This document shows positions 2,233-63,172 of a DNA stretch of 64,000 nt, piece by piece. The notes beneath the pieces are model-generated. The model saw only the letters and a list, made by a program, of their open reading frames with translations, did no database searches and had not been told where the DNA came from. Position 1 is the stretch's first letter. Every line of letters begins with the position of its first letter. A program made the translations under genes and the position numbers. Origin of the DNA: Fistulifera solaris. Its lineage: Eukaryota. The DNA lies in NCBI GenBank assembly GCA_030295235.1, contig AP026151.1:124001-188000 (forward strand). The letters are read 5' to 3'.

Positions 2233-3673
2233 AATGCTGAGCAAAGCGGCACACTCGATACATTTTGCATTGCACATATCATACGGCTTTCGGCCCGACT
2301 TCTTCTTACAAAATGCCAAATAGAGTTAGGCAAGACTGTGTCCCTCTTCGTGCGACAAGTCATAAGAAGTTAACAACTGCATTGAATGCATCTTATTCAA
2401 ATTTCCTTTCCTTGCTTTTATTGATTCAACAGCAATGTTGTAATCGCTCAAAGTATGACGTGCTCACGTCACGAAAATGCTTTTTCTCAGATTTTCTGTC
2501 AACTTAAAGAAACCAAATTGGACAAAATTTTCCGCCTGGTTCAAAATAAAGCATTCGCATTTTATTGTGTTCGAACCAAGACACGGATCAAAGAGATGGT
2601 GTAGATTGATTGGTAGCCACCGCAATATGCAAGAGATAAAAATATCGACCTTTTTTGTGTTGATGATTCCGAGCAAAACTGCTGATGATTGACTCTTCAT
2701 CAATACTCACTCTAAAAAGTGACATTCTTTGTTGGCATGAGCATCTTGCTAGAATAGTAGGCAGTATTAGCAGCGAAATACTTTGACTTAAATGTTCGAA
2801 GTCTCCTCTTATCAACTTATCCAGGACTGCATTGCAGTCATGAGTCGAAAACGATCATTGTTGCCGAGCGGTACTCACGACCGTTATAACCAACATAAAG
2901 CATTACAGCCGATTTTTACTATTATTTAATATGTGACCATTGTTTTTGAGCGGCACTCAGGAGCGTTATAAAGTAACATAAAACATGACAGTAAACTGGC
3001 AGCACCTCCTCATTTTCTCTCAATCAGAGATCTCAGATCTCTCAACAGATAATCTCAAAAGTTTTACCTCTTTGTTGCAAATGAGAAAATTGAGAACTTA
3101 GCGTAATTGCTTCCTTTCCCTCTTACAGAACCAATAATCCATCACTAGCTAGAGGTGTTGCCTAGTAGATCACGCAGATTAGCAAGTCACCACCTGAGCG
3201 GATGATCGAATTGCAACTACGAGCAATTTGCTCGATGGCGGTGCGGGGAGAGTCATATACGTACCAAATACTTCGAACACTTTTGGAATCTGGGAAAATT
3301 AAATACGGAAAACGACTGCCAGTTCGGATTTTCTTTGACTTGATTATGCCGGCTGCCAGAACACCGTAACTCTGTTTTACTATAGGTCAGAGTGTATGTT
3401 ACTGTATTAACGACTGCATTTCAGTCATGAGTCAAATACGAGAAGATGCTTTTATATACTCCGGAGTACAAAAAAAATGATACATCCATGCAAACATTGA
3501 CACATTCAAACTTCATTCGATATCGTACGAAGTCGTAATCAAACACCAACGCGTAGCACGATATCTCAATTAAAGATCGCTCTCGAATCGATTCATCGGT
3601 TTTCGTGTTGGAAAGTAGTATTTTACGCATTTCCTTGGTATTAAGTAATGTGACAATCTCTCTATTAGTTGGA

Positions 3674-7958: not shown

Positions 7959-8349
7959 TCTGAAAAAGGTATTGCGAAGCAAAATCGAAAGTCCAATGTA
8001 TGGCTTTCACATGAATAAGTTAGATAATTACAGAACTAGAATAAAAAAAGAATAGACAAGCACAAATTACAATAAAATCGAGAGTTTATGCAACTCAAAG
8101 GTCGCTTTTTGTGGAGTGGACCGTCAAAACCTACCAGAAACAGTGATTTATTAAGAGTTAAACATAGTGTAAATGAAGGTTTTTCTGAAATTCTAATATT
8201 TTTTAAAACCTGTTCATCTCAAAATAATGATTCGAAGGCTATCTATGATTTAGTATAGCTCAAAGTGTAAGAGACGTTTTGCCATGAGCCATGACTGATT
8301 TGCCGTCTTTAAACACGAACTAGCGCCGCGCTTATTCATCGCAATGTTG

Positions 8350-8640
8350 GTTCCGTTTTGCGTCTCTCGCAACTGTCCATTGTCATTCGACTGCAAATAT
8401 AATTATTAAAATTACGGGTAAGTAAAGTCGCAACAATAATGATTCTGACCTACTTGTTAAGAGTTTCTTTTATTTTCACGTCGAATATTCCGAGGATCGA
8501 CACCTTGAATTTTTACTATGAAACGGAGTGTCGGTTTACGCCAGCCAAGACTGAATTGTACAGAAGTCATGAAACGAACAACAAAGGGATCCATTTGGCG
8601 TCTCTCGCATCCGTCCATTGTCATTCAACTGCGAATATGA
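8350..8640 (+). repeat. ~240-bp repeat unit (about 1.2 copies), homologous to 10224-10557
   Basis: Shares gcgtctctcgca...ctacttgttaagagtttcttttattttcacgt...ggatcgacacc...actatgaaacggagtgt...agtcatgaaacgaacaacaaaggg with 10224-10557. Confidence 0.9.
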
Positions 8641-9233: not shown

Positions 9234-10016
9234 TCAAGTAGAAACGCGAATGAAACTGGAGCCGCGTTTCTGAAAGTGCTGGTGTTCCTCCACAATCGGT
9301 TGTTTCGTCGTTGAAACGAAAAGTAACAAGAGTGGCAAGCCTACAACACCATTTAAGTCAAAGCGAACACGACGTGTGTCAATCCGTAGTTTTTTCAATA
9401 ATAACAAATCAGGCATTTTTTCCATTCTTAATCCGCGACGAACGTTTACATTCATCGTTTGATTATCAACGGAATGAAAGTCCTCCAAGCGGAAAAATTG
9501 CAAAGCGGCGGAAATGGTTGGTTCAACTTCTGCAAAAAGAACTGTTTCGTTCCATACGTTCCTCACCAAATGCTCGCAATGCGTCACCAAATCAGCAGCG
9601 ACTCCTCCCTTTTGACGGAATGCTTCCTCAACACAGATCAGACCAATCGTAGGTCGCTTTTCGGAACGGGCTCCGTTATTGATCCCGACTCCTGCCATCC
9701 CTATGACCCGACCGAGCTCCTTAGCAACAAATAGATTATACTTTTTGCCTCGCATGCGTTTCGCCGTTTGTGTGTATTGACGGAATGTGTTAGCCTCTGT
9801 CAATGCTTGCTCATGCAGTGACCAGCGCAGTTTGTCGATGCCATTACGTCGAGGGGAATCGAATGTTTGCACGAGCAATTGCACCAATTCTTTCCATTCG
9901 TTGTTGTGTCGGGGTGGCGTAATGTACCATGCGAAGGCAACCTTCTTGACGATGATGAGCGCTGCCAGCGAAGACATAAAGCGCCATCTTTCCATATCAT
10001 GGATCTTCGAATGCAA
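9234..10016 (-). CDS. GNAT-family N-acetyltransferase (start and C-terminus uncertain)
   Basis: LFVAKELGRVIGMA, IGLICVEEAFRQKGGVA (acetyl-CoA motif A), ALQFF. Confidence 0.7.
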   Translation of the reverse strand: MHSKIHDMERWRFMSSLAALIIVKKVAFAWYITPPRHNNEWKELVQLLVQTFDSPRRNGIDKLRWSLHEQALTEANTFRQYTQTAKRMRGKKYNLFVAKELGRVIGMAGVGINNGARSEKRPTIGLICVEEAFRQKGGVAADLVTHCEHLVRNVWNETVLFAEVEPTISAALQFFRLEDFHSVDNQTMNVNVRRGLRMEKMPDLLLLKKLRIDTRRVRFDLNGVVGLPLLLLFVSTTKQPIVEEHQHFQKRGSSFIRVST

Positions 10017-10223
10017 ATTCCCACTTCTTCATCACATGTCAGTTGTTCTTTTGTCGAGTTAAATCAAAAAGCCGTTTTAAGGAAGATCCGATGGAGTTAA
10101 CAGCGTGTGATGAATGATGATGATCGAAGAAATAATAAAAAATCTGTGCGTTTCAAGTGGTTTTTACGTTCCCAGAAAATGTGGGAGAGTGGTTTTTCAC
10201 GTTCCCAGAAAATGTGGGAAAGC

Positions 10224-10557
10224 GGATCGACAACCTAAATTTCCACTATGAAACGGAGTGTTAATTTAGGCCAGCCAAGACTCGATTGTACAGTAGTCAT
10301 GAACCGAACAACAAAGGGTTCCGTTTCGCGTCTCTCGCATCCGTCCATTGTCATTCAACTGCGAATATTATAATTATAATCACGGGTAAATAAAGTCGCT
10401 CAATGAAATGAATCTGAACTACTTGTTAAGAGTTTCTTTTATTTTCACGTAGAAATAATCCGAGGATCGACACCTTGACTTTACTATGAAACGGAGTGTT
10501 GGTTTACGCCAGCCAAGACTGGATTGTACAGTAGTCATGAAACGAACAACAAAGGGT
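10224..10557 (+). repeat. ~240-bp repeat unit (about 1.4 tandem copies)
   Basis: ggatcgaca...aacaacaaaggg occurs twice about 240 bp apart; homologous to 8350-8640. Confidence 0.9.
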
Positions 10558-18189: not shown

Positions 18190-20169
18190 TGTGAAAATAT
18201 GACACAATAGAAAAAAGAATAGATCAATGTAGACTAATATGAATAAGCTCCTTTCCTTCCATCTCTTCTCACTTTTGATGGATGGGTGATGATTCGATTG
18301 AGTTTATTGATGGCTCACCACGTTTGTTTCCGTGTCGTTATCGTCGTGTTCTTCTCGGTTGATGTTGATGGAGGTTGTGACTCTTGTGTGACGGACGGAC
18401 CGACGATTGGAAGGCAGGACGGACGCTGGTGAAAAATCGTGCGCGCACTGACCGCGCGCGTTGACACGGGGCGGACAACCGGTACTCAAGACTTAGAGAC
18501 ATGGAACACCTGTGTCGTGTGTACGTGGCGCACAATTCTACAGAATAAGTGAGTGTCGCGCATTCACGAACAAAAATCCATCCAGAACTGCTCCTTTCAA
18601 CCGTTATCCAAGTCATCTTCTCCCCCATTTCCTTTGCAACATAAAGAAGGAACATCACAACAAAGAAACCTTCAACAATCATCTCCTTTCATCGCTTTTG
18701 GTCTTATAATTGACTCTCTCCTTGAATAGAATGAAGAAGGTGGCGTCGAATTCGTCCCTCCGTCATGAAAATTGGCGGCCACCGAGAAGGTACGCCGCCA
18801 TGATACTTCTCGCCACCATGATCGAGCAAATCTTTCTGGTTTGGCATAGAGTCATGATGCAGTTCGAGGAGAGTTTAGTACATCAAATCAAGATGGTTCA
18901 TTTGACATCGGGTGCCTCCACGAGTTACTCTTCTCTTTCCTCCGTCAACAAGTAGACCCAATGGGAAGTATCAACAGCGAATGTTACCCGTCATTTTGAA
19001 CCTTTCGACGTTGTTTTGTGTGTAAAGTATACCCAAATTGAGTTAAATATTGCAAATAGAGTCCACTGTTCTCATAGCTATTTAATTTTTGCAACTAAAC
19101 ACTAACTCGTAAGAGAAGCAGCAGAGGTCTTTTTCATTCCGTCATGAATTAAACGGATCTAATGTGTAACTTTTTCTCGCTAAACTGATGGCCATTTTTC
19201 TTTTGTATAATAAGTCGATATACCTCACGCAAACGTGCTCTTTACTTCATTATTATAAGCATGCAGTTTTCAATAGAATATGCAAATAAATCGATCGGAA
19301 ATTTAGGCCAAAGTGTGGTCCGTATTTCATCACGACTGGATTTCAGTCATGAGTTAGGAACAACAGTGCGAGCCTACGAGATATCCTTTTTTCATTCGTT
19401 TGTAAGCTTATTATGTTGCTTCGGCATGCTGTCACTGCTATCAGCAGCACTACATACGGCAAAAGGCATTGGTACCTGAATGATGGTGCGTAGCCTTATC
19501 AGCAACAGTTTTCAAGAAACAAACTTGCTAGAACCACAGTCTACGTGATAGTAAATTTTGACATTATTCAACGAAAGACAATTTTGAGCTTTATTCATGA
19601 AACCCGTTATCAACATCAACACTAATGCCTTATATGGTGGCATTCATGCCGAAGGATGATTCATTAATGCTGCTTATGATGTTCTCGTTTTTGAAACATA
19701 TGCGACAATTTCGTTTCGGGACTGACATGACGTAAGTCGTTTTTCCGTAAACCAACAGTTTACGTTATAGTAAATTTTGACAACATTCAACGCAAGACAA
19801 TTCAAAGCGACTTACTTGATGTTGCCTGTGTGTGCTAGTCTTTACATCTCTTATTGTTTAATAAAAATCACCTGGCAACTGGCAATAGGACAATAGGAAG
19901 TTTATTTGATAACATATTCATTAACACGCCAATGCATTCGTAGTCTCGGGCCTCGGGCAGGAGGAGTCGTCTCGCCGCCGTCCGTCACCGTGATACGTCA
20001 CGTTTTTTCTCCTTTTTTCGTTATCGATGCGATGCGATCGCGTTGTGATCATACTTTTGGTGATGATTCGATCATTCGATCATTCCTTCATAAACAGACA
20101 AGAATAAGAATACATCATTATTATCATAACAGACTCAATTCGGCTTGCTTTTCCGTGTATTCCGAAATC

Positions 20170-23568: not shown

Positions 23569-24397
23569 GATGCTTTTCTCTGCTACAGATTCTACGGCCT
23601 TACAAGATAACAAGTGTGTTAACTTCGCTAGGGTTCAAACAAGCGACAGATCGAATGATGAACGATTGAAAACACACAATGCGCAACAACAACGACGAGA
23701 TCAAGAACCGATAAACGACAGTATTGGCGCGGACGGTAGTTAAGCTCGACCACGCTTCTTTTACAGCAGACCATTATTCGCAAGCAAGGGTGCTTATTTC
23801 ATAGCGTCGGGGTCTTGTCTTTGTTGTTATTTACCGCTTACCGCGCGGATGCGATGGAGGCTTCAAAGCGGCTCACGGACGGACGCTAACGTTGAAGAGT
23901 GTTTGTTAGTCGTCGTCGACTGAGCCTACTAACTGGTACAGGTACCTTTTATTAGGAGCAAATGGTAATGCTCCCGAAAGCATTCATAAAAAGTCAAGTT
24001 ATGAATGCGTTTTCATCGACAACGGAGTGTATAATAATGTTGCATGTTTTGAAAAAATGATTCATGACTGAAATACAGTCCTGGGAAAGTTATCTTACAC
24101 TTTGGGCTTATACTAAAGCCTTGTCGACTAAAACAATAGAAAAGTGTATCCCAGATGCTGATAAACCTAAATCTATCCTTTGCCCCTAATTAGTGAATAA
24201 ACGAATATTGTTGGGGAGAGAAAATCAACTCGCTAATTATAAATTACTACTTTAGGATCCATCACTTTTTGCATGCAGGATGGTATTACAGTGCACTGTT
24301 TTCCTTTTACTTTGTACGGCAGGATTGGTTCTATTCACATGTTTGGAGCAACTAAATTTCTGTATTGCTTGCTCCACTTGGTGGACCGAATGATTGA

Positions 24398-29120: not shown

Positions 29121-29792
29121 TTCTTTCTCGAAATTCTAGTGAGCACAATTTTGTTAAGATGGTGCTTAAATACTCCAGACTTTCTGACAACAGATATGGG
29201 CAACAAGAAGAGGAAAGGAATGAGTAATAGTCTGTTGAATAGCGTGATTACAGAATAAGAACAGGATGTTGTGAAGATCTTTTGTCATTCAACTGTTGCG
29301 ACGTTGAAAAAAAATGCATCGCGATGATCTTTCATCAACCGCTCGATGTATAGCCCAAAGTGTAGATTACTTTTTACATGACTGCATTTTAGTCATGAAT
29401 CAACATTCTTTCGAGCCGGAGTGCTTCCTATTCTCCGTGCAATCTTCAGCTTTCTATGCAAAATTTGCCTAAAGCACTTAACAGCGCTTACAAGTCCTTC
29501 TTATGCTTTTACACATCAAGTGAGAAGCGTAGCGTTATCATCGATTCAACGCGTAGTAGGCGATTTCTCCGAGACTTCATTGCAGTCATGTTGACGACCT
29601 AAGAAGGACTCCTCATGCTGCCCTTCGCTTTTAACATTAACAAAACGTCTGGCCCCACAAATAGATTGAAGAGAAAGATAAGATAGACTACTTTAGCGTC
29701 CTTCAGAAACAAAAAAGAATTATATGGAGGATTTGTCAGCGCTTCCTTCGAACCATCGCTACCGACCCGTTTTTGATGTGACAGATTTCAGC

Positions 29793-40706: not shown

Positions 40707-41429
40707 TTTCTCTTTAAGCTTGATGTGAACTATAGAAAGCTGTTTGTTTTTCCTTGCTTGTCAAACGAAGAGCGGTACAATTATCAAGCGAATGACTTTG
40801 AATGCAAGAGCTAGTCGGGGGCCGTCGTTTTTGCTGGACAGTTGATGCCGGTGTTGGAGTGATTTTTGAATCACCCTCCATTTTGGTGTTTATGACACGG
40901 TTTTCACGGGATGTCGTTCGCGTCAATTGTTTAGGGACACTTAGTACACTTTGATCTATAGCCGGATACTTGTTTAGAAGTGCCAAGAACGTCGGCCGCT
41001 TTCGGAAGCCGAAATCCCGCGTTCCAAAGACCCTAATTCCAGTGCCGGAGTGACGCTGAAGAAAATTGAATGATTAACTTTTTCCAGACTTCACGGGGCG
41101 AATGAAGTTCGTCGCCGCAATGACTGCATACGAGTAAGGATGTTGTTGCTGGAAGGAATAACACAAGCCGCCTCTTATATTTGCCATGTCGAAAATCCTT
41201 GCGGATGCTTGTCTTCCAGTTTATTGTAGGTCAAAGTGTACCATCAAATACGACTGCGTTGAGTCATGAGCTAAAATATTCGTTCGTTCTTTAAAATGGT
41301 TGTGTTTATAAGACTTTCTTGCGATGAAATTATCTAACATGACGATTTGAACTGCACGGATCGATTCGTAAGTCGTAAGGCGCCAGAATGTGCATTATGA
41401 TGTATCGTGAAAAAAGGCGTGACATAATT

Positions 41430-41870
41430 AATATTCTTTCGAGCGACAATACGTTACCTACAATTCGTTCGTTCGCCCCATTTTTATGAGCTTTATCTAT
41501 CAAAAAGTCTTTAGCAGCATTTCCATTACACGCCTTGATCCTTGATACTTTACGTCGAAAAGCCTGCGAAACGTTGTCTGCCGTATTGGACTATAGACCC
41601 AAAGTGTTGTCGCATTTTGCCACGACTGCAATTCAGTCACGAATCAATATTTTTTCGAGCGACAGTGTTACCTGTTACCTCCAATTCGTTCGGTAACCAA
41701 ATCTTCTTGAGATCCATTTGCCGTTGTTGCAATCAAGTAGCCTCTTAGCAGCGTTTGCATTACTCCCCTTGATGTTTTACGTTGAAGAGCCTTGTGAAAC
41801 GTTTTCTTCCTTTTTACTATGGACCCAAAGTGATGGTTTAAGGAGACCACGATTGCACTATTTCAGTCAT
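41430..41870 (+). repeat. ~220-bp tandem units carrying the dispersed bipartite motif; homologous to 62470-62960 (reverse strand)
   Basis: Repeated tttcgagcgaca...caattcgttc...ttagcagc...cattac...gaaacgtt...ctat(a/g)gacccaaagtg. Confidence 0.8.
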
Positions 41871-50224: not shown

Positions 50225-53200
50225 TTATGAACGTGAGCCGCCTTCAGTCAACTTTGCAAGACCTATAGGCCCAGAGGTTGCAAACGGGGTAAATGATCCA
50301 GACGCCTCATCTCCTTCTGCAAATGGTGTAAGGTAATCGTCAGTTTTGCGTTCAAAGCCTAAATTGTCATCTGGCATGGCAATATTGTACGCCATGGGTT
50401 GCGGACTCCATATTGAACTCATTTGGCGGCGCGCCCATTGGGCGTCCGGCTTGGGGCCCACTGATCCGACATTTAGCGCATGCGCCGACTGTCTATGAAG
50501 TGTAAAGATATTGCAACCGGAAAAGAACTCAAAGCTAGCAATCTCACCCATTGACGGACGCCTGGCAGGGTTCCTTTCTAAAAGACGAGTTATAAGTTCC
50601 CTTGCTTCGTCTTGAATTCCCGCTCCATGACTATCAATAAATAGAGCGTCAACGGTACCGCTCGATGAGCCTTCATGGAATGTGACAATCTTTTGCCGTG
50701 TGGTATGCTCATCAGAGTCGAGAAGAGGGGGGCGGCCAGAGAGACACTGGTACATGACGCAACCTAGAGCCCAAGAGTCTGCAGCTGGTGTGGGTATCGC
50801 TCCCAAAACAACCTCTGGCGGCAGGTATGCTGTAGTTCCCTCTATTCTAATATCATCGCCCGAAACATCCTCGTTGACTTCCGTTCCACTCGACTCTTGG
50901 GCCATTTCCGTGGCATCATCGACAGCTGCTCCGGCAACTTGATGTCCCGACTGCCAGTCGCCGTCACGAAGATTTTTCAGAAGGTTTTTAGAGATAGAGG
51001 CGACTTTCAGCCTCGCCTCAGCGGTGAAGGGACGACAAGCACCGTAGTCAGTGAGTTTTACATGACCTGACTCGGTTATTACGATATTCTCTGTCATAAT
51101 GTGCGAGCATTCAATACTGTTGAGAAAGCGTGAACAAAATAGGAGCAGCATCGATCACAAAACCGTACGTACCTGGTTTCCAAATCAGCGTAAACGAGTC
51201 CAATACTATGAATGCTATCTAAAGCTGCTGCGACTTCACCGATAATAAACCGACAAGAGTCATGATCCATCGACCCATGCTCGCGTAAAACACTATGCAA
51301 GTCGCCCCGACTGGCATACTCAAGAACCATGTAAGCTCCTTCTCGAAATCGAAAACTGGAAACGAGCCTTGCTATACCGGGGTGTGACAACAAGCGCAAA
51401 ACTGCAATTTCTCGTTGTACGGAAGTCTCGTATGACATTTCGCGAATTTTTTCGGTTGATATGATCTTCACAGCATATTCTGCCCACGACGATCTCGTCT
51501 TGGTTCGATCGATCAATCGCGCGTACTTGACAACACTGAATGCACCCGATCCCAGCTCATGTCCAAACACTAAGTCGTGAAACTTAAGAGACGGAAGAAG
51601 AGTCGGTGTTTCAGCGAGTTGTTGTCGGCTCCAGTCGGACATACCGTCGTGACTCGAATCGGGAGGTTTTATTTTGTCCATATACTGCTTTACATAGTCG
51701 AGACCTTTGGAATGCAACGTAGCTGAGTTGTTGTGATCATCACGTGTTTCTTCTCGGGAGAGAAATGGATTCATTTGCTCCGACGAACGCTTAGGGTGCT
51801 GTTTGCTCGAAGATATTGCCCAAGGTGCAACGCCAGTAATCGTGGAAGGCGGTTGCGATCTACCTTTATTGGACGATCTTACAGCCCATGGCGCTACGCC
51901 AGTGACTGTTGATGGCGGTTGACTTCGATTGTCTTGATGGGCGCTTTGAGCTGCGATAGATGCTGATTTTGGTATGCTTGCTTTTGCTGACGGTGCCGGG
52001 GGTCTCCACGTGCCCATTGATGCTTTTAACGATAATTTTTGCGGAACTTCAGGGGCAACAGGCAGCTGTCTAGCAATACTTTCAGTGCTTGCTACGTGCG
52101 ACGACGGCGGAACGATTGTCGGGTTCGTGGCCACTCCAGAAAACAGTTTGTTACACAAGGATTCAAATCGCGTGGCATTGGACTGTTGCAATTGGTATAG
52201 AACATTACACGTCATCTTGCGTACCGTAGGATTCCAAGACGGTTCGCTCCGGACAAGGGCAGGTAAAATTACACTCAAGGATAAATCAAAGTGCGCCTCT
52301 ATCATTTCAGAAAATGTTTTATTCCGAAACAGTTGTAAAGAGCATTCTGCCACACGCGAATGCTCACTCGGCATGAGGCCTCCCGTCACACGTAGGAGTT
52401 GCGTCCACCAGCTGGGTGGTGCTTCCACGATGGTCATCAATTTCAACAGTGTCTCGACTTCATGCAGCAGCAACACCTGCTTCGATGTATTACCGGTCAG
52501 CGCCAATTCTTCCAGCAGCGAGGGCATTATTAATTCCATCCAGTCTGATTTCTTTTGAATCATAGTAGCGAGACACTGTGTTAACGCTTCATGGTAGAGC
52601 TCAATGACCGGAGTCTGATCACGCCAAAGAACCACCGCATTCGTTTTATGAAGAGGCATCAAATGTTGCGTTATCAACTGACGATAAATCAAGTTGTTTT
52701 GATCGAACGACTCCGGAGAGACGCCCAAAAGTATAAGACGCAAAAGGCGCAAAGAAAGGGCAATCGAGGCTGCCTGTGTATTTTCTTGCCGCAACGATGT
52801 ACCCGATGACGATCCCGAATGGACAAAGTCATGCCACATGCGTCCCAATAATTTTCGAATCAGTTTACGGACGGCAGCATCGGCGTAACGATAGAGAGCC
52901 ATTAAAATCATCTCCAAGTGTTGCATGTGTTCCTCCCACTCTTCCTCCAACCGTGCCGTCAGCTGCACAACAAACTGATATTGCTGCAGTCGCGATGACA
53001 TGTCACTGGAGGGATGATTTTGGCGCAAATCTTGTGTATACGCATTCATGTGTGAACGAAGGATCTGCAATTCTTTCAAATGGACGAAAAAGGCTTTGAC
53101 CAGTGTATGATCCTTGGAATCGTGACGAAGCAGATGCACCCATAAGTGCCTATCATCTTGATTCGCAGCGGAAGCCAAATTGTATTCCATCCACTGTATC

Positions 53201-53547
53201 ATCCATTTGGTCACCAAGAATCCATGCCAAACTTGATGAAGTGTAATGTCGTTGGGTGACAGTGACGATTCGAGCAATGCATTCTCCCGAAAATTCATGA
53301 TCGCCGCATGGTTTCCCGAAGCATCTTCCAGCGGATCCCACGCTAGATTCAAAAGCTGAACGGTGGCTTCGTACACGGCGGAAGACAGTGGAGTACAATC
53401 TTCGACCGTGAGACCTTCGTAAGTCATCGTATCACGAATCCCCAACCATCGTTCGATCGTCTGTATGGGATCTGTATCTGGTTCAATCTCTGCAGCCTGT
53501 AACACTTGTATCACGGCCGCAATGAATTTGTCGATTGTCTCTGTCAT
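50225..53547 (-). CDS. Fusion of a PP2A B56(B')-like domain and a PDK1/AGC-like Ser/Thr kinase; intron 51091-51172; one extra base near 51180
   Basis: B56-like LMPLHK...LYHEALTQC...NTSKQVLLLHEVE...SEHSRVAECSL...SWNPTV in the same 817-aa ORF as GSGAFSVV, YAVK, YADL(KP)EN; exon 2 has DYG, GTTAYLPPE, DSWALGC. Confidence 0.85.
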
Positions 53548-53847
53548 TTTTAGAATGCGAATGAATCACAACGAGAGGCGTTGCACAACAGTCGACACGC
53601 GGTAGCGGACCGAGGCTTTCCTTTCAAGTATCCGAGCGACAAACAAGGCGACAAGCGCTAATTGTGAATACACGATTAAAGGATGCACAGAAGTGGAAAT
53701 GGTGAACTTTTTGTGCAACATGAACGGCGACAAGCTCTCGCCGTCGTCTTTTTGTTTTTGCTTTCGAAATCATTTTAGTTCCGTTAGAGAACATAACCCG
53801 GATGTGTATATGACTATAGTGTCGAAGTGTACTCGTTTTCAACAGGA

Positions 53848-56800
53848 TAAATAAAAATAAAAATTGAGAGTTTAGCGTGCTTATTTCCTATCCCTATGAC
53901 AGAACCGAAACACAATCTGTCCCTAGACAATGTCTAGGATACAGGTTGCCGAGACATCGCTGAGGCAATGAGCAAGGGGGCTGCCATCTGATTCAGAATA
54001 AATAGTGTGGCCAGGTCCGTCGGCCGGGTGATTAATTTGGTTTCGCATGAAGCGCCCGATTCTGGTGGAGAAGTGAAGGCTTGTGTGTTGTTTGGATGTT
54101 CTTGGTTCAATTTTCCTCTTTGCTGCTGTTGTGGTGTGATTTCCGATGCTAATGGGATGGTTTCTGGAGTTGTGAAGGTAAGTTGTAACTGGAGTCGCTC
54201 GTTTTTCTCTTTCCATATCGTATGGTATCTAAGGATGTTTACAGCGGTGATTGACTAACCAGGAAGTTAGATGATTGTTGTCCAATAGAAGTCTCTGCCT
54301 CAAGGGCCGAGAAAACGGGTATTTGATGTCGCATTGGTCCTTTAGACCGTACAAGGCTGTTACCGTTTGTTGCAGATTATATCGTGTCGCCCGTTCTGCG
54401 GCTGTTTGCTTGGATGTGTCTACTAAACTTGATCGGATTTTCCACGCTTCGTAGGTCTCCATTATAATATACTTGCAGAGTTTCTTTGCCCACGTTCTTC
54501 CATTGTTCGAGTGGGTTAGTTCATTCATATTTCGAAGATGACTTGAAACTTGGTCGTCCCACTCTTGGCGGGATTAGGCCTTTCATCCATAAATCGACGT
54601 TGCTGTCAGCTAGGGTGCCGTTGAACCAGTCTTTAATGTTCTGTTGAATCTCTCTGCTTAGGTCGATTGGTGTATTGTTTTCTCTCAATGTGTCTAATAG
54701 TCCGTCAAGAAACCGATGTCTCCAATTGCTGAGTGCCGGGCAACGCAACACATGGTCGAAGCATTCGGTTTTTGCAGGGCAATGTGGGCATCTCGGCGAT
54801 GAGATTTCGTTGCATTTATGGCGTCTCTCGTTCGTTTGAATCCAATTGCTAAGTCGTTTTGCGTGAAGGCTTTTAGTTTGAATGGGAGTTTTCGTCGTGC
54901 TAATCGGTAGGCTGTCCAGTGCAACGAGTTATAATCGTCTTTTGAAAGGTTTAGTTTGTCCCGGAGGTATTGCAGTCCTTGTTCTCTGCCCGCTTGGGCT
55001 CTTAGTTCGCTTGAATACTGGCTGGTTAGAAGTTCATTATCAAGTAGTATGTAAGCAAAATTGCCTAATGGGATCGGTACTGAAGAGGCAGTTCGCTGCT
55101 GGAGTGCCTTTGTAGCTAGATTGTCGGCTTCGACATTTAGTTGCGCTAGCCAAGAGAGGTTTTCAATGTCCTCGTTATCGTCTTGGTGCCCATGGACATG
55201 TTCGTGCGTGATGTTCGGGATGTCCTTGTACTGCTCAATTGTTAGTTGTATCACATCCATATCTGGGTGGAGCTGATCGTGGGAGTTCGGTATTTCAATT
55301 TTCTGGATGTATTGTTCCTTTTTTAGAAGAGCTTCGTTATCGCATGCTGTGTTTAGTAGGGTTTCGTCGCCGTATTTCAACTGAAAGAAATTGGTGTAAT
55401 GCCGAAGGAAAGTGAATACCGATAGTCTTCCGTATGCCTCCGGCTTCGATAAGACGTCATCGGTCGGCCTTGTGCCACGCCCACCCACTCCAAAAGAATT
55501 TCGGTGCCGTTTGCTATTACCCATCCAAATCCCCCTTTGGTGGCTATGCACCCACCGTCTGATACAACGTATAGCCGGCGGTCTGTTCCGATTACTGCTT
55601 CGAAAAGTGCCTCGCAATTTGGAGATTCTTTAGTGTAGCGAAGGAGGTCTTGTTCCCAGGCATTGAGTGATTGTAGATACTCGTTCCATGTTCGCGGGTG
55701 TCTTTCCGCTGGTATATTTATTTTGTGTTGAGGTATTGTGTAATCAAAGCGTTGTCTTGTTGAGATGCCTGCGGGGATGAATGTTCTCGGAGTGTAATCT
55801 TCGGGGTTCGGATCCGGGTGGTTTCGATTTAGTCCGCTGTTTGTAAGTTCCGGGAATGGGTAGCATGTCCATTTGTTGGAATCTCGTTCGTATAGTTGTC
55901 GCTCGATAATATCGTAAATTGCAGGCCATTCTCTGTGGGACGGGACCTCGGTCCATGCACCCAGTCGATTCTGGGCGTTTCCCGTCGGGTTGTAATGTAA
56001 CTGATAAATTCTCTCCAAATTGTCCAGCATCGCTTCCCTGGTATCGACTGAATTGGCCAGAGTTTGGTGCTGCGTGAGATCATCAAGTCGGGTTTGGTTC
56101 TTCCCTGTAGTTAAACGACAACTGCTGACCGTCGACATCTGATATATCCGATAGAGTCGCCACCTGCAGATACAAGCGAACTCTGTTGAGTTGTTCAAGT
56201 TTCTTTGGGCTATTCCACAACTTGGCTGCTACATCCATGATGTAGTCGTCATTTTCTCTGTAGATTTTGGGTCTGTGTAGTTCCGGAATAACAAAGCTTC
56301 CGTTGACTTTGGTTAGAAACAGTCTTAGTTCGTCAAGCCACTTGTTGTCAGAGAAGGCTATCAGGTGGCTGGGATTTTCGAGAATCAGATGTCGAGAGCC
56401 GACAGTGTGCTGTATCCACTCTAGAGTTATGATCAAAAACTCTCCGATGTGTGTCTTTTGTCGTGATATGGCGTAATAAATAGCAGCAGTTAAGCACACC
56501 TTGATCTGTCCATAGCGAGCTGAATCCTACGCCTCCTTCGGCCTCGGAAAGGAAAACCATGTGTTTCGGGAAAGTCTTCGGGTAACCCATCTTCTGCAAC
56601 GTGTAGCTCAGTGGCCCTGATTGTATCGAGTTCAATTGTTTTTCGCTTAATCCGGCACATGGTCAGTGGATATCGAACACTGGGTAGAAAAACTGACATG
56701 TAGGCTCGGTAAGCTACAGACGCTTCGAGTTTGTGGGCATAAAGGGCCCTGGTGACTGTTCTACTTTTTGACAATAATGAAGCTTGCTGTGCTCGGAAGT

Positions 56801-57518
56801 CGTTCACTGGTTGTGCTTGAATGCCCAGAGTTCTATGATGAGCTGAATTTAGTTGTCGCCGTATTTGTTCAACGGCACCATCGGTGCTTTGTGTTATTGT
56901 GATTGCGGATGCATCTTCGTCTAGGCCGCATTTTCCCTCGGAATCGAAAATCCATTTTATGTGATAAAAGAAGCACTTGGAAAGTTCCAATTTTCCTCCG
57001 GTCGTAACTAGCAATTTCTCCCACCATTGGGTTGCTGTTTGAAGTTCTGTGCGCAGTTTGTCAGAGGTATCAATTCCCCCTGATATTGTCGCCGAAGTTG
57101 TTAATCCAGATTGAACTATCGTCAACAAACATCTGCATATGGTGTTGGATTGTTTTCGTTCGTGTTGGGTTTCGGAAAGTTGTTCCTGGCGAGTGGCGTT
57201 TCATGGCTTTCAAGATCAGTGTGCTTATCGCCGTCCAAATTGCTGGTGAACTTTGATTACCTTGGCCTGGGCCATGTAGTTTATGGGATGGAGTAGATCC
57301 ATATGGGGATTTTGAGATGCCGAGTGCTGTTGAAACGTGATATTGGGCCTGGTCAAGAAAATTGTTGAAAAGCATGCAGCGTCGTGAGGTACACCAAGTT
57401 GTTCACATCGCAGCTTTGCTAATGCCATTACGATTCTGTCATAGCATGCTTTGGCGTCGTTATCCATGACTACTAGTTGCGTTTTTGTTAGTTGTGCCAT
57501 CATAAAGGACAGGAATTT
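53848..57518 (-). mobile_element. 5'-truncated, frameshifted non-LTR retrotransposon with RT + RNase H + C-terminal CCHC-like motif (Ambal-like assignment is inference)
   Basis: RT motifs DNDAKACYDRIV, GPGQG..SSP, FVDDS, TGGKLELSKC, RTLGI; RNase H VSDGG..GFGWV, EAYG, CDN, HVHGHQD, LNVEADNLA; 13-bp TSD GTTTTCAACAGGA at 53835-53847 and 57519-57531. Confidence 0.92.
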
Positions 57519-58314
57519 GTTTTCAACAGGACTCGATTGCAGTCAGGAGTCTCGTCTCATCTTGTTCAGATGCGAGAAGTTCGCGCTGCTTTAACCACAT
57601 CAGCAACAATCCACCTTCATTCCGCTTTTTTTATTGTATAAGCTTACGAACAATTCAGGGCTTGTTTGACTCCTCATGTCTTGGGCAGTCCACAAAGTCT
57701 TTACTATGGTGTCAAAGTGTAGATTACTTTTTTCAAGACTGACTCATCTCAGTCATGAGTCGTCACGTCACTAGTATCAGTTCACAATGAAGGTTCAGGT
57801 TTTTCACGATAGTTCTCCAGATGAAGAAGATCTTTTTCTTCGCATGCGTTGTGTTCCGCGAGATACGTGGACCGAAAATGCAGAACGGTTGACGCTTTCT
57901 TTCTTGTACTTTCCGTAGGAGCCTCAAACAGACGCACTTTTCGGAAAGGTGGTTCGACCTCAGAAAGTAGCCGCGTGGCCAAGCTCCATTTACTGTGGTG
58001 ACAAATGTACAAAAATTATGTGCACCCTTCGCTTCCGTCTTCGGTAGGAAACTTACGTAAGATTTTACAGAAAGCTTCACCCTCTGTTTTCTCTGCAATT
58101 CCTTTCTGTGTACAACGGGAGAAAAAGTCCGCTCTCAATAAACCAACATGCCACCTGTTGCAAAACACATGCATTCATTTGCCTCGAATGAATTATTGCC
58201 ATTGTTGCCTCTTTGCAATCTTTATTACTCCGTATAAACCTATCTTCTTATTCTAGCAACACCGTCCTTCTAGTTGAGCGCAGGCCTCACTATTATCACG
58301 TTAGCCCACGCACT

Positions 58315-59256
58315 ATGAGTCAAGCGATTCAGCCGAACGGCGTGGGCGTCGCCACACGCCCCACAGCACACTCGTCCTCACGATCCATCCCAGGGACCGT
58401 GTCGGTGCCCACGAAACGACCCAAAACAAAACACAAAAAGCCCGAAGGAATGCCACGACGCCCTTTGAGTGCTTACAACTTCTTCTACAAAGCCGAGCGA
58501 ATTAAATGGTTGGAGGAACAGAAAGGAAAGAAAGATAATGCGTCGAGTAGTAGTACCTGTTCGACGAACAATGAAGAGTCGAAACGGTCGGACTTTTTAG
58601 AAATGGGCAAGGTACGTTTGTGGCGGATATGTGCACAAGACGTGATGCAGCAGATTTCTGAGAGTTTTTCGTATTCATGGCAGGCCATCAGTCAGCGCTG
58701 GAGAATGCTGACAAATGAGGGTCGTGAACCGTATGAGAAAGAGGCCAAACAAGATTTAGTCCGTTATCATCAAGAAATGGACGCCTTCAACATGCGCCTT
58801 GTACGATCGTACAAGAAACCTGAGAAATCAGGCAGTTTATCTTCACACTCTCGGGCGCCCAGTCTCCACGAAGTATCCCCCTCCTATGGACCTATACTTA
58901 GATCGGAATCCAGTGGTTCTCGCAACCAACAGGAATCTGCGCCAAGTACAGGAGTCAATCCGTTGGCCAGCAGCTTGCAACTGCCCCTTCCACTCCTCCA
59001 ACAGAACGGATCAACTGCCCGACCCGAGCCCCCAACGAACACGACGGTGTTTCAAACACTGGGTCAGCAAGTCATTGCCCAGCAACTGACGCAAGAGCGC
59101 TTGACGGAACTCCGCGCACTGCTTCGTGAACTGGAGCAGGTCTTGATGCTGCAACTCCATTTGGAGCAGCATTTTTCAAGACAGTCACCGCCAACCGATG
59201 GTGGGATTCAAGAAGCTTGTTCCGCGTTGCTGTCTCTGGTGAATCAGCTGAGGTGA
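58315..59256 (+). CDS. HMG-box protein; intron 58612-58683; a further 3' exon is possible
   Basis: PRRPLSAYNFFYKAER...FLEMGK|AISQRWRML...PYEKEAKQDLVRYHQEM; GTGAGT donor-like sequence overlaps the stop. Confidence 0.85.
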   Translation: MSQAIQPNGVGVATRPTAHSSSRSIPGTVSVPTKRPKTKHKKPEGMPRRPLSAYNFFYKAERIKWLEEQKGKKDNASSSSTCSTNNEESKRSDFLEMGKVRLWRICAQDVMQQISESFSYSWQAISQRWRMLTNEGREPYEKEAKQDLVRYHQEMDAFNMRLVRSYKKPEKSGSLSSHSRAPSLHEVSPSYGPILRSESSGSRNQQESAPSTGVNPLASSLQLPLPLLQQNGSTARPEPPTNTTVFQTLGQQVIAQQLTQERLTELRALLRELEQVLMLQLHLEQHFSRQSPPTDGGIQEACSALLSLVNQLR

Positions 59257-62235: not shown

Positions 62236-62469
62236 CCTTGTGGATGCGTTTCCTCTTGTTTCACGTCTATTCATCATAGTCGCCAAAGATATTTTTATTT
62301 TATTTTAAAAATAAATTAAGTGAAGGCGCTTCAAATGTTTTATTTTTTTTTATAAAAAAAATTAAACTCACCTTTGTTTGAGCAGGCTCACAGAAAATCT
62401 GGGCCAGTGCGGTATATTCTACAATACCAGGTACTCAGAAAATCTGAAGGAGTGCTGTGATCACCTACT

Positions 62470-62960
62470 GATTCATGACTCATGACAGACATGCAGTCGT
62501 GGTCTCCTGGAACCATCACTTTGCTCCATAGTAAATATGGAAGAAACATTTCGCAAGGACGTGTAATGCAAACGCTGCTAAAGACTACTTTAATGCAATG
62601 AGGACAAATGGAGCTCAAGATAGTTTGCTGAATGAACGAATTGCAGGCATAATTGTCGCTCGAAAATAAAAAAAAACATTGATTCATGACTGAAATGAAG
62701 TTGTGTCGTGGTCTCCTTGAATCATCACTTTGCTCCATAGTAAATGCGGAAGACAACGTTTCGCAGCGCTCTCCAACTTAAAACACAATGACGCGTAATG
62801 AAAACGCTGCTAAGGACTGTTTCATTGCAACAACGACAAATGGAGCTCAAGATATTTTGCTGAACGAACGAATTGTAGGCAGCATTCTCGCTCAAAGATT
62901 AAGCATTCATGACTGAAGTACAGTCGTGGATATACGTTGAACATACACTTTCGACTATAG
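62470..62960 (-). repeat. ~210-225-bp tandem units with three copies of the dispersed bipartite motif
   Basis: attcatgact...cacttt...atagt at ~62471, ~62682 and ~62905; shared aacgctgctaa, gacaaatggagctcaagata, aacgaattg. Confidence 0.85.
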
Positions 62961-63172
62961 TAGAAACGGTTTTCCTTATTTCAAGACAGACGGAAATTCT
63001 GAAGCACTGTTTAAGAAAGGCTCGAAGATAGGAAAAGTTTTTAAGGGCAAATAATGGTGTTTTAACACACCAAGAAAAACTTGGTATGCGGTATTTTATG
63101 TCCACAGAAATGTTGGATAGGATCCTTCACACCAACGGAAAATCTGGGGATGTGGTGTTTTTTTTATTTTAA

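Follow-up and report, generated by a model that had tools for sequence, protein, structure and literature searches.

The DNA analyzed here, referred to as the window, is a stretch of 64,000 nucleotides from the diatom Fistulifera solaris (contig AP026151.1, positions 124,001 to 188,000) and has the character of eukaryotic DNA, with intron-poor genes and a GC content of about 46%. It contains the 3,671-bp remnant of a retrotransposon that lacks long terminal repeats (non-LTR), which runs on the minus strand from 57518 to 53848 and interrupts one copy of a bipartite motif that is dispersed through the window. An initial annotation of this DNA had recognized the arrangement and suggested that the retrotransposon family may use the motif as a safe-harbor target. 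Our analysis identifies the element as a dead, 5'-truncated copy of a long interspersed nuclear element (LINE), decayed by frameshifts, whose position within the motif is probably a coincidence or a by-product of where insertions are tolerated, rather than the outcome of sequence-specific targeting.

Both borders of the insertion can be placed to the base. The 13-mer GTTTTCAACAGGA has only two exact occurrences in the window, one immediately outside each end of the element, with any further match requiring two mismatches. A repeat search of the window recovered this pair as direct repeat D13, with a spacing of 3,684, and found no long terminal direct or inverted repeats at the element. At the truncated 5' end, protein homology begins at the base adjoining the right-hand repeat, where the window reads KFLSF and two database relatives, P0001 and P0002, read MKFLSF and MKFFSF, respectively. 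When the element and one copy of the repeat are removed, the flanks align over their full length with other copies of the motif, so that the complete motif described in the initial annotation is indeed restored. In an nhmmer search, 57517-57555 corresponds to positions 32-70 of the motif model, a model in which this copy was itself included.

An empty allele, which the initial annotation had proposed to look for in reads, was found when four public sequencing runs were compared with positions 53400-58000. Contig record 9 (533 nt) of the wetland metagenome X2 consists of 53442-53834 followed by 57519-57657, with one extra C at the join; the 3,684 bases left out correspond exactly to the element together with a single copy of the repeat. 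Its left flank differs from the window at 25 positions, with 10 gap positions, over about 390 nt, indicating that the empty site comes from a diverged allele, a homeolog, or a relative. The contig shows that an intact copy of the motif is older than the insertion. Nor is the filled site peculiar to this assembly, as both junctions are bridged by contigs of X1: record 8 extends from inside the element (56013) across the 5' junction to 58000, and record 1 (53437-53878) crosses the 3' junction and enters the element by 31 bases. The chance that the structure is an assembly artifact, or a fortuitous direct repeat around a degenerate reverse transcriptase (RT) pseudogene with no insertion having occurred, is practically nil. 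An artifact is refuted by the exact empty site in an independent contig from another run, the match between repeat borders and the start of protein homology and the two junction-crossing contigs likewise speak against this explanation, and we found no point in its support. The exact 13-bp repeat, the tblastn match described below, and the empty-site contig together bear out the view that a non-LTR copy with its target-site duplication (TSD) lies inside a pre-existing copy of the motif. X2 also contains contigs of another kind, nearly identical to the element body (53917-55442; six differences, four gaps) and to the right flank, alongside the roughly 93%-identical version of the locus that carries the empty site. 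With both kinds present, that run must contain two related diatom genomes or subgenomes.

The body of the element matches residues 805-1902 of P0002 (1,935 aa) in eight tblastn segments at 32-59% identity, with successive frames of -3/-2/-3/-1/-2/-1/-3/-2. As the alignment starts at residue 805 and the frames alternate, approximately the first 2.4 kb of the open reading frame (ORF) is absent and there are at least seven frame changes. Pieces of RT are readable on the minus strand between the repeats (GPGQGNQSSP, FVDD, and GGKLELSKC). Pfam searches of eight ORF pieces from the window copy returned nothing significant, and the Cys/His knuckle gave a weak zf-RVT match (E = 0.043) that falls below the Pfam cut-off. 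Contigs of X1, from sibling copies or from this locus itself, carry small insertions and deletions relative to the window at 55443-55492 (including 55443 and 55445), at 55973-55987 (including 55973), and at 56465, positions that coincide with or lie close to the changes of reading frame in the element. Some of the frameshifts are thus either private to the window copy or errors of assembly. No sibling contig at 85% identity or more was found in X1 over 56172-57557. The insertion, its borders, and the decay of the element are direct observations; the coordinates are collected in Table 1.

Table 1. Features of the insertion site, the element, and the dispersed motif (positions in the window; minus-strand motif copies are marked with a minus sign in parentheses).
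Feature	Position	Strand	Basis or remark
Interrupted motif copy, left part: block A CTATAG..GTCGAAGTGTA and start of spacer	53814..53834	+	exact match to CTATRGTGTCRAAGTGTA; aligns with other block A sequences
TSD, left copy, 13 bp	53835..53847	.	adjoins element 3' end; the 13-mer occurs exactly only twice in the window
T-rich simple-repeat tail	53848..53863	-	element strand TTTTTA twice, then TTTA; the match to other contigs breaks off at 53849-53854
Highly repeated 3'-terminal ~150 nt of 3' untranslated region	53864..54015	-	contains the 53922-53938 palindrome; contig depth, variants, fold
Remaining 3' untranslated region	54016..54243	-	P0002 tblastn match ends at 54244, residue 1902 of 1935
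5'-truncated, frameshifted ORF2 remnant	54244..57518	-	P0002 residues 805-1902; tblastn and reading-frame pieces
Cys/His knuckle CPHC..H....C, 3' of the RNase-H-like region	54740..54790	-	ORF piece 54521-54928
RNase-H-like region, frameshift near 55445	55115..55570	-	VSDGG, EAYGRL, CDNE, GHQD, ADNLA across two frames
RT active-site motif FVDD	57118..57129	-	ORF piece 57070-57402 reads ..HHMQMFVDDSS; D937 and D938 invariant in the alignment of relatives (A1)
TSD, right copy, 13 bp	57519..57531	.	adjoins truncated 5' end; protein homology starts exactly at 57518
Interrupted motif copy, right part: block B CTCGATTGCAGTCAGGAGTC	57532..57551	+	CAGTCAKGAGTC matches 57540-57551
Next intact motif copy, same co-oriented array	57697..57765	+	~210 bp downstream of interrupted copy; nhmmer E = 2.2e-15; exact matches
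Motif copies	2784-2850, 3371-3437, 8246-8307, 8510-8572, 10245-10306, 10475-10541		profile search
Motif copies	19294-19359, 19720-19776(-), 24056-24122(-), 29349-29404, 29561-29590		profile search
Motif copies	41216-41275, 41585-41649, 41810-41870, 62472-62540(-), 62678-62749(-), 62905-62967(-)		profile search

Relatives of the element were retrieved with two queries. A 236-aa RT piece from the window matched P0001 (503 aa) and P0002 at 46-47% identity, and the N-terminal 420 residues of P0002 yielded six further proteins of 1,562-1,941 aa; P0005 comes from Fistulifera solaris. The seven full-length or nearly full-length proteins, P0002-P0008, make up alignment A1. Pfam called Exo_endo_phos above its cut-off (24.5 bits) in two of the seven, P0006 and P0007, at 26.4 and 26.8 bits, and left it uncalled in the other five. 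The residues D247 and N249 (in IDANS), D293 (RIDF), and D318 and H319 (SDH), which we take to be those of an apurinic-type endonuclease, are invariant throughout A1. Full-length members, whose endonuclease the initial annotation had asked to have identified, carry an apurinic-type enzyme at the N-terminus, in the part that is absent from the truncated window copy. This N-terminal Exo_endo_phos also separates the relatives from LINEs with a restriction-like endonuclease (R2, CRE, and NeSL/Utopia), which have a C-terminal PD-(D/E)xK and no N-terminal apurinic/apyrimidinic endonuclease (APE).

The remaining domains are more diverged. RVT_1 scores 27.5 bits in P0004, below the cut-off of 29.6, and zf-RVT is weak in the family. 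The A1 profile matched three R2 RT chains in the PDB (E = 4.7e-7 to 1.5e-6), a match restricted to the RT at profile positions 721-1095, while a phmmer search of the PDB with P0002 gave no matches. Neighbors in the ESM Atlas combine Exo_endo_phos, RVT_1, and RNase_H, the last being present in 71-98% of the members of the nearest clusters. Pfam did not call RNase_H in the eight window ORF pieces or in the eight database proteins; RNase-H-like motifs of the form D..E..D..H..D can be read by eye in the window copy and its relatives. The Exo_endo_phos calls, the RT profile match, and the Atlas neighbors identify the family, on the strength of its sequence, as an APE-type LINE with endonuclease, RT, and Cys/His knuckle, which probably also carries RNase H after the RT. 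In the earlier designation of an RT-RNase H family, the RT is confirmed by FVDD and the R2 RT matches, and the RNase H stands as probable from the motifs read by eye and the Atlas neighbors.

More distant relatives were sought with protein-based scans. In viral contigs there were 50 pattern matches and no relatives; among contigs of prokaryote genomes, nine loci at 22-36% identity were found in contigs of metagenome-assembled genomes (MAGs), where they are presumably eukaryotic contamination. All nine are too distant to carry the window motif. At one of them (L102, 10707-11020, in a bacterial MAG contig, 25% identity), a (TTTC)n run lies about 290 nt past the stop codon; no TSD was found there, and this contig, too, is probably a eukaryotic contaminant. 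Tails of T-rich simple repeats may be common to the wider family.

The 3' untranslated region (UTR) of the window element is about 400 nt long, measured from the end of the ORF to the tail, and the tail itself reads TTTTTA TTTTTA TTTA, in agreement with the (TTTTTA)n-like end, distinct from poly(A), that had been noted earlier. The hairpin reported near 53922 is likewise present: a perfect 8-bp palindrome, CCTAGACA-A-TGTCTAGG, occupies 53922-53938 and forms an 8-bp stem in the minimum-energy RNA structure predicted for the final 163 nt, which has -40.9 kcal/mol and a z of -2.0, a value equaled by 3 of 200 shuffles. A search of Rfam at E <= 10 with the element 3' end returned nothing. The terminal portion is far more repeated than the body. 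The summed contig depth over 53862-54015, which is not a copy number, is 391 in X1 and 689 in X2, whereas values of about 12-48 prevail in the flanks and across nearly all of the element outside this portion (79 in bin 54170-54323). Site 53879 has a variant base in at least 12 contigs of X1 and at least 24 of X2. At least 15 contigs (3 in X1 and 5 + 2 + 5 in X2) leave the element tail at 53849-53854 and pass into mutually unlike flanks.

A single other related 3' end is present in the window, at 3082-3214 in the same orientation. It is 81% identical by blastn over the best 47 nt, gives an nhmmer E of 5e-6 over about 115 nt, and represents a diverged subfamily in which the shared stretch is only about 110-130 nt. 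No coding part is recognizable for this copy, and its fold is no better than that of shuffled sequences (z = -0.55). A candidate TSD, a 10-nt repeat with one mismatch, overlaps the copy's own conserved end and was dismissed as not credible. The conservation of the terminal ~150 nt across subfamilies, the stem-loop, and the short terminal repeat would fit an RT that recognizes its own 3' end. A metagenome scan with the conserved 3'-end pattern gave 97 loci with no true matches; none could be extended by blastn to the element, where a 30-nt chance match in L062 was all that appeared.

The dispersed motif, which had been put forward in the initial annotation, proves to be real. The sequence CAGTCAKGAGTC occurs eight times in the window with at most one mismatch, where 0.54 occurrences are expected, and none of 100 shuffles reaches eight. 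A profile based on nine copies, the reconstructed empty site among them, gives 19 nhmmer matches (E < 0.01) of about 65 bp when the interrupted copy is counted; the nine match by construction, and ten are new to the profile (8246, 8510, 10245, 10475, 19776, 29349, 29561, 41585, 41810, and 62967). The consensus consists of TTTACTATRG, closely followed by CAAAGTGTA (block A), about 17-22 variable bases, and then (A/C)(C/G)GACTGCATTTCAGTCATGA(G/A)TC (block B). Of the 1,162 bp of motif sequence, 0 bp falls within long ORFs, defined as those of at least 150 codons, which cover 63.6% of the window. Copies often stand in co-oriented tandem arrays, mostly 205-265 bp apart, with two gaps of 369 and 587 bp. 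In six cases (10475, 29561, 62540, 62967, 57697, and 8510) a distance of 120-240 nt separates the proximal copy from a co-oriented ATG ORF downstream of it; for the clusters 2784/3371 and 41216-41870, no such ORF was found within 600 nt downstream. From this positioning we consider, with moderate confidence, that the motif is probably a promoter-proximal module with GACT/AGTC half-sites.

The motif had also been described as containing a hairpin at the edge of the TSD. A short inverted repeat is present, and its interpretation as a stable hairpin was rejected: at the target copy, a 5-bp stem with a 12-nt loop folds at -2.6 kcal/mol (z = -0.2), single-stranded DNA folds of the copies range from -2.6 to -4.7 kcal/mol (z of -0.2 to -1.4), and the stem that forms varies from copy to copy. 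Rfam assigned no family at the gathering score anywhere in the window, and the motif was not met in the literature cited here. At E <= 10 a SNORD111 match in a motif array scored 15.7 bits against a required 46 and is meaningless, and no tRNA genes were found in the window. Some copies belong to larger repeated units. A longer repeat, of at least 130 nt and reaching beyond the motif (..GAACAACAAAGGG..GCGTCTCTCGCATCCGTCCATTGTCATTCAACTGC), is common to copies 8510 and 10245, the regions 8500-8640 and 10235-10375 forming direct repeats that bracket a minus-strand gene at 9234-10028. At 62472-62967, on the minus strand, the motif and its surroundings are tandemly duplicated in units of about 204-227 bp, upstream of a minus-strand gene with an ATG near 62275.

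The idea that the element targets the motif must be set against the abundance of the motif, which makes up 2.0% of the host DNA, or about 5.5% once long ORFs are set aside. At the latter figure, chance insertion into a motif copy is not rare. Only one of the two related 3' ends in the window, that of the element described here, lies inside a motif copy; the second is located between the complete copies 2784-2850 and 3371-3437, and no half-motif flanks it. Safe-harbor targeting therefore stays a conjecture drawn from one event, and the caveat originally attached to it, that a single event could be due to chance, stands. Moreover, if the motif is a promoter module, it would not be a safe harbor. 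An ordinary insertion into tolerant intergenic DNA is the most likely explanation. Some observations pull the other way. Both related 3' ends fall within motif arrays, although these account for just 5.8% of the host DNA and 16% of its non-ORF part; calculated post hoc and with n = 2, the probability of this by chance is about 0.025. The nick inferred on the plus strand falls between GGA and CTC, inside the conserved GACT that opens block B and not in the variable spacer, a geometry compatible with an endonuclease that reads the motif. This junction and the second copy also have a similar word, TCAACAG(G)ATAA, which in the second copy precedes the conserved 3' end by about 37 nt. Finally, the other junctions of the family were seen as consensus strings, and random insertion, too, is a presumption. 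We regard it as unlikely that the family has a preference for integrating into the motif or its tandem arrays, its APE nicking at GA^CT where the conserved block begins.

Two forms of such a preference can be distinguished. Integration could favor the arrays as regions, perhaps as open, promoter-like chromatin, with no fixed nucleotide and by way of either the endonuclease or tethering to a factor. The location of both 3' ends in arrays, the absence of motif copies from all long ORFs, and the frequent placement of the proximal copy shortly upstream of a co-oriented ATG ORF are in keeping with this possibility. The same picture is predicted by survival bias, however, if insertions are tolerated only in dispensable DNA; in addition, the test has a sample of two, the second copy belongs to a diverged subfamily, and the promoter role of the motif is itself deduced from position. 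We therefore think a regional preference rather improbable. In the stricter form, the endonuclease would read block B or the weak inverted repeat and nick at GA^CT, giving the family a dedicated target in the manner of R1 and Tx1 elements. The nick at the first bases of block B agrees with this, as does an endonuclease of the apurinic type, the type found in the target-specific R1 and Tx1 clades according to the portion of PMC4640811 consulted. There is only one such event, however, the other related 3' end being outside the motif; the "hairpin" at the target does not exceed shuffled sequence in stability; and insertion would be costly if the motif is a promoter element. The conserved word AAGTG is also absent from the four consensus strings, among 12 listed, that represent the breaks at 53849-53854 (15 contigs), and these strings have no shared flank, although this test is weak and, by simulation, nearly powerless. 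The four strings agree with one another at 0.53-0.67, as unrelated flanks would. We rejected such agreement as a test of shared flanks after a simulation with n = 5, in which in-phase motif copies, some of them imprecisely anchored, agreed at 0.55 and random flanks at 0.50; with values so nearly equal, it is not evidence either way. We consider true site-specific targeting very unlikely.

A comparison with known LINE systems shows a mixture of shared and divergent features. The I, Tad1, Ingi, Nimb, and Loa groups are non-specific APE-type LINEs with RNase H. The present family resembles these in its order of endonuclease, RT, RNase-H-like region, and Cys/His knuckle, and in its variable-length target duplication and 5' truncation. 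It differs in being so diverged that RVT_1 is reached only below the cut-off, and in the T-rich simple-repeat tail of the window element in place of poly(A). In "stringent" LINEs such as eel UnaL2, the RT recognizes a 3' stem-loop and a short terminal repeat. Like these, the window element has a terminal ~150 nt that is more repeated and better conserved than its body, with a stem-loop and a short simple-repeat end; unlike them, the fold of the second window copy is no better than shuffles, and 3'-end recognition is here a matter of inference. RTE elements are short and have no RNase H, in contrast to this family, with its ORF of about 1,900 aa, RNase-H-like region, and knuckle, and share with it an occurrence as non-LTR retrotransposons in diatoms. 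As far as the consulted portion of the literature goes, most known target-specific LINEs belong either to early-branching clades with a restriction-like endonuclease or to the APE-bearing Tx1 and R1 clades (PMC4640811), the target-specific APE LINEs comprising the R1 clade (R1, TRAS, and SART) and the Tx1 clade (PMC4640811, PMC1919474). Our family shares with R1 and Tx1 the apurinic-type endonuclease, and the window insertion shares with theirs a location in multi-copy sequence with a nick at the edge of a conserved block. In contrast, what defines R1 and Tx1 elements is repeated insertion, many times over, at a single nucleotide of a single target, as opposed to one of two 3' ends within the motif here.

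The most likely course of events is an ordinary integration by target-primed reverse transcription. The endonuclease would have opened the plus strand where motif block B starts, with a nick that separates GGA from CTC, and the 3'-OH released there would have served as the primer on the element RNA, so that copying began in the T-rich tail. Either reverse transcription or the joining of the 5' end would have stopped early, at about ORF residue 805, and a second nick on the other strand, 13 bp away, would have produced the 13-bp duplication. Decay of the copy by frameshifts would have followed. The order of the nicks and the role of the 3' stem-loop are here proposed by analogy with what is established for LINEs. 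The site is a single unit in an intergenic array of the motif, which is very abundant and probably promoter-associated; a second, gene-proximal unit is intact. The insertion lies in a divergent intergenic region between genes at 51094-53547(-) and 58315-59256(+); judged by eye from the translations, the former is protein-kinase-like and the latter has an HMG-box-like segment.

In conclusion, the window copy as it stands is an ordinary dead LINE copy, and it documents a diverged diatom LINE family with an endonuclease, RT, an RNase-H-like region, a T-rich tail, and a highly repeated 3' end. In the consulted portion of a survey of diatom transposable elements covering two species, Thalassiosira pseudonana and Phaeodactylum tricornutum, RTE-like elements are the only non-LTR type named (PMC2806351), and no search for a prior description of the present family was made. 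With 19 copies in 64 kb, all outside ORFs and in arrays often just upstream of genes, the motif may be a common promoter module of this diatom. If the LINE did home to the motif, the few site-specific LINEs would be joined by one with a target of a new kind, namely a dispersed cis-element, probably associated with promoters, as opposed to an RNA gene, a telomere, or another transposon.

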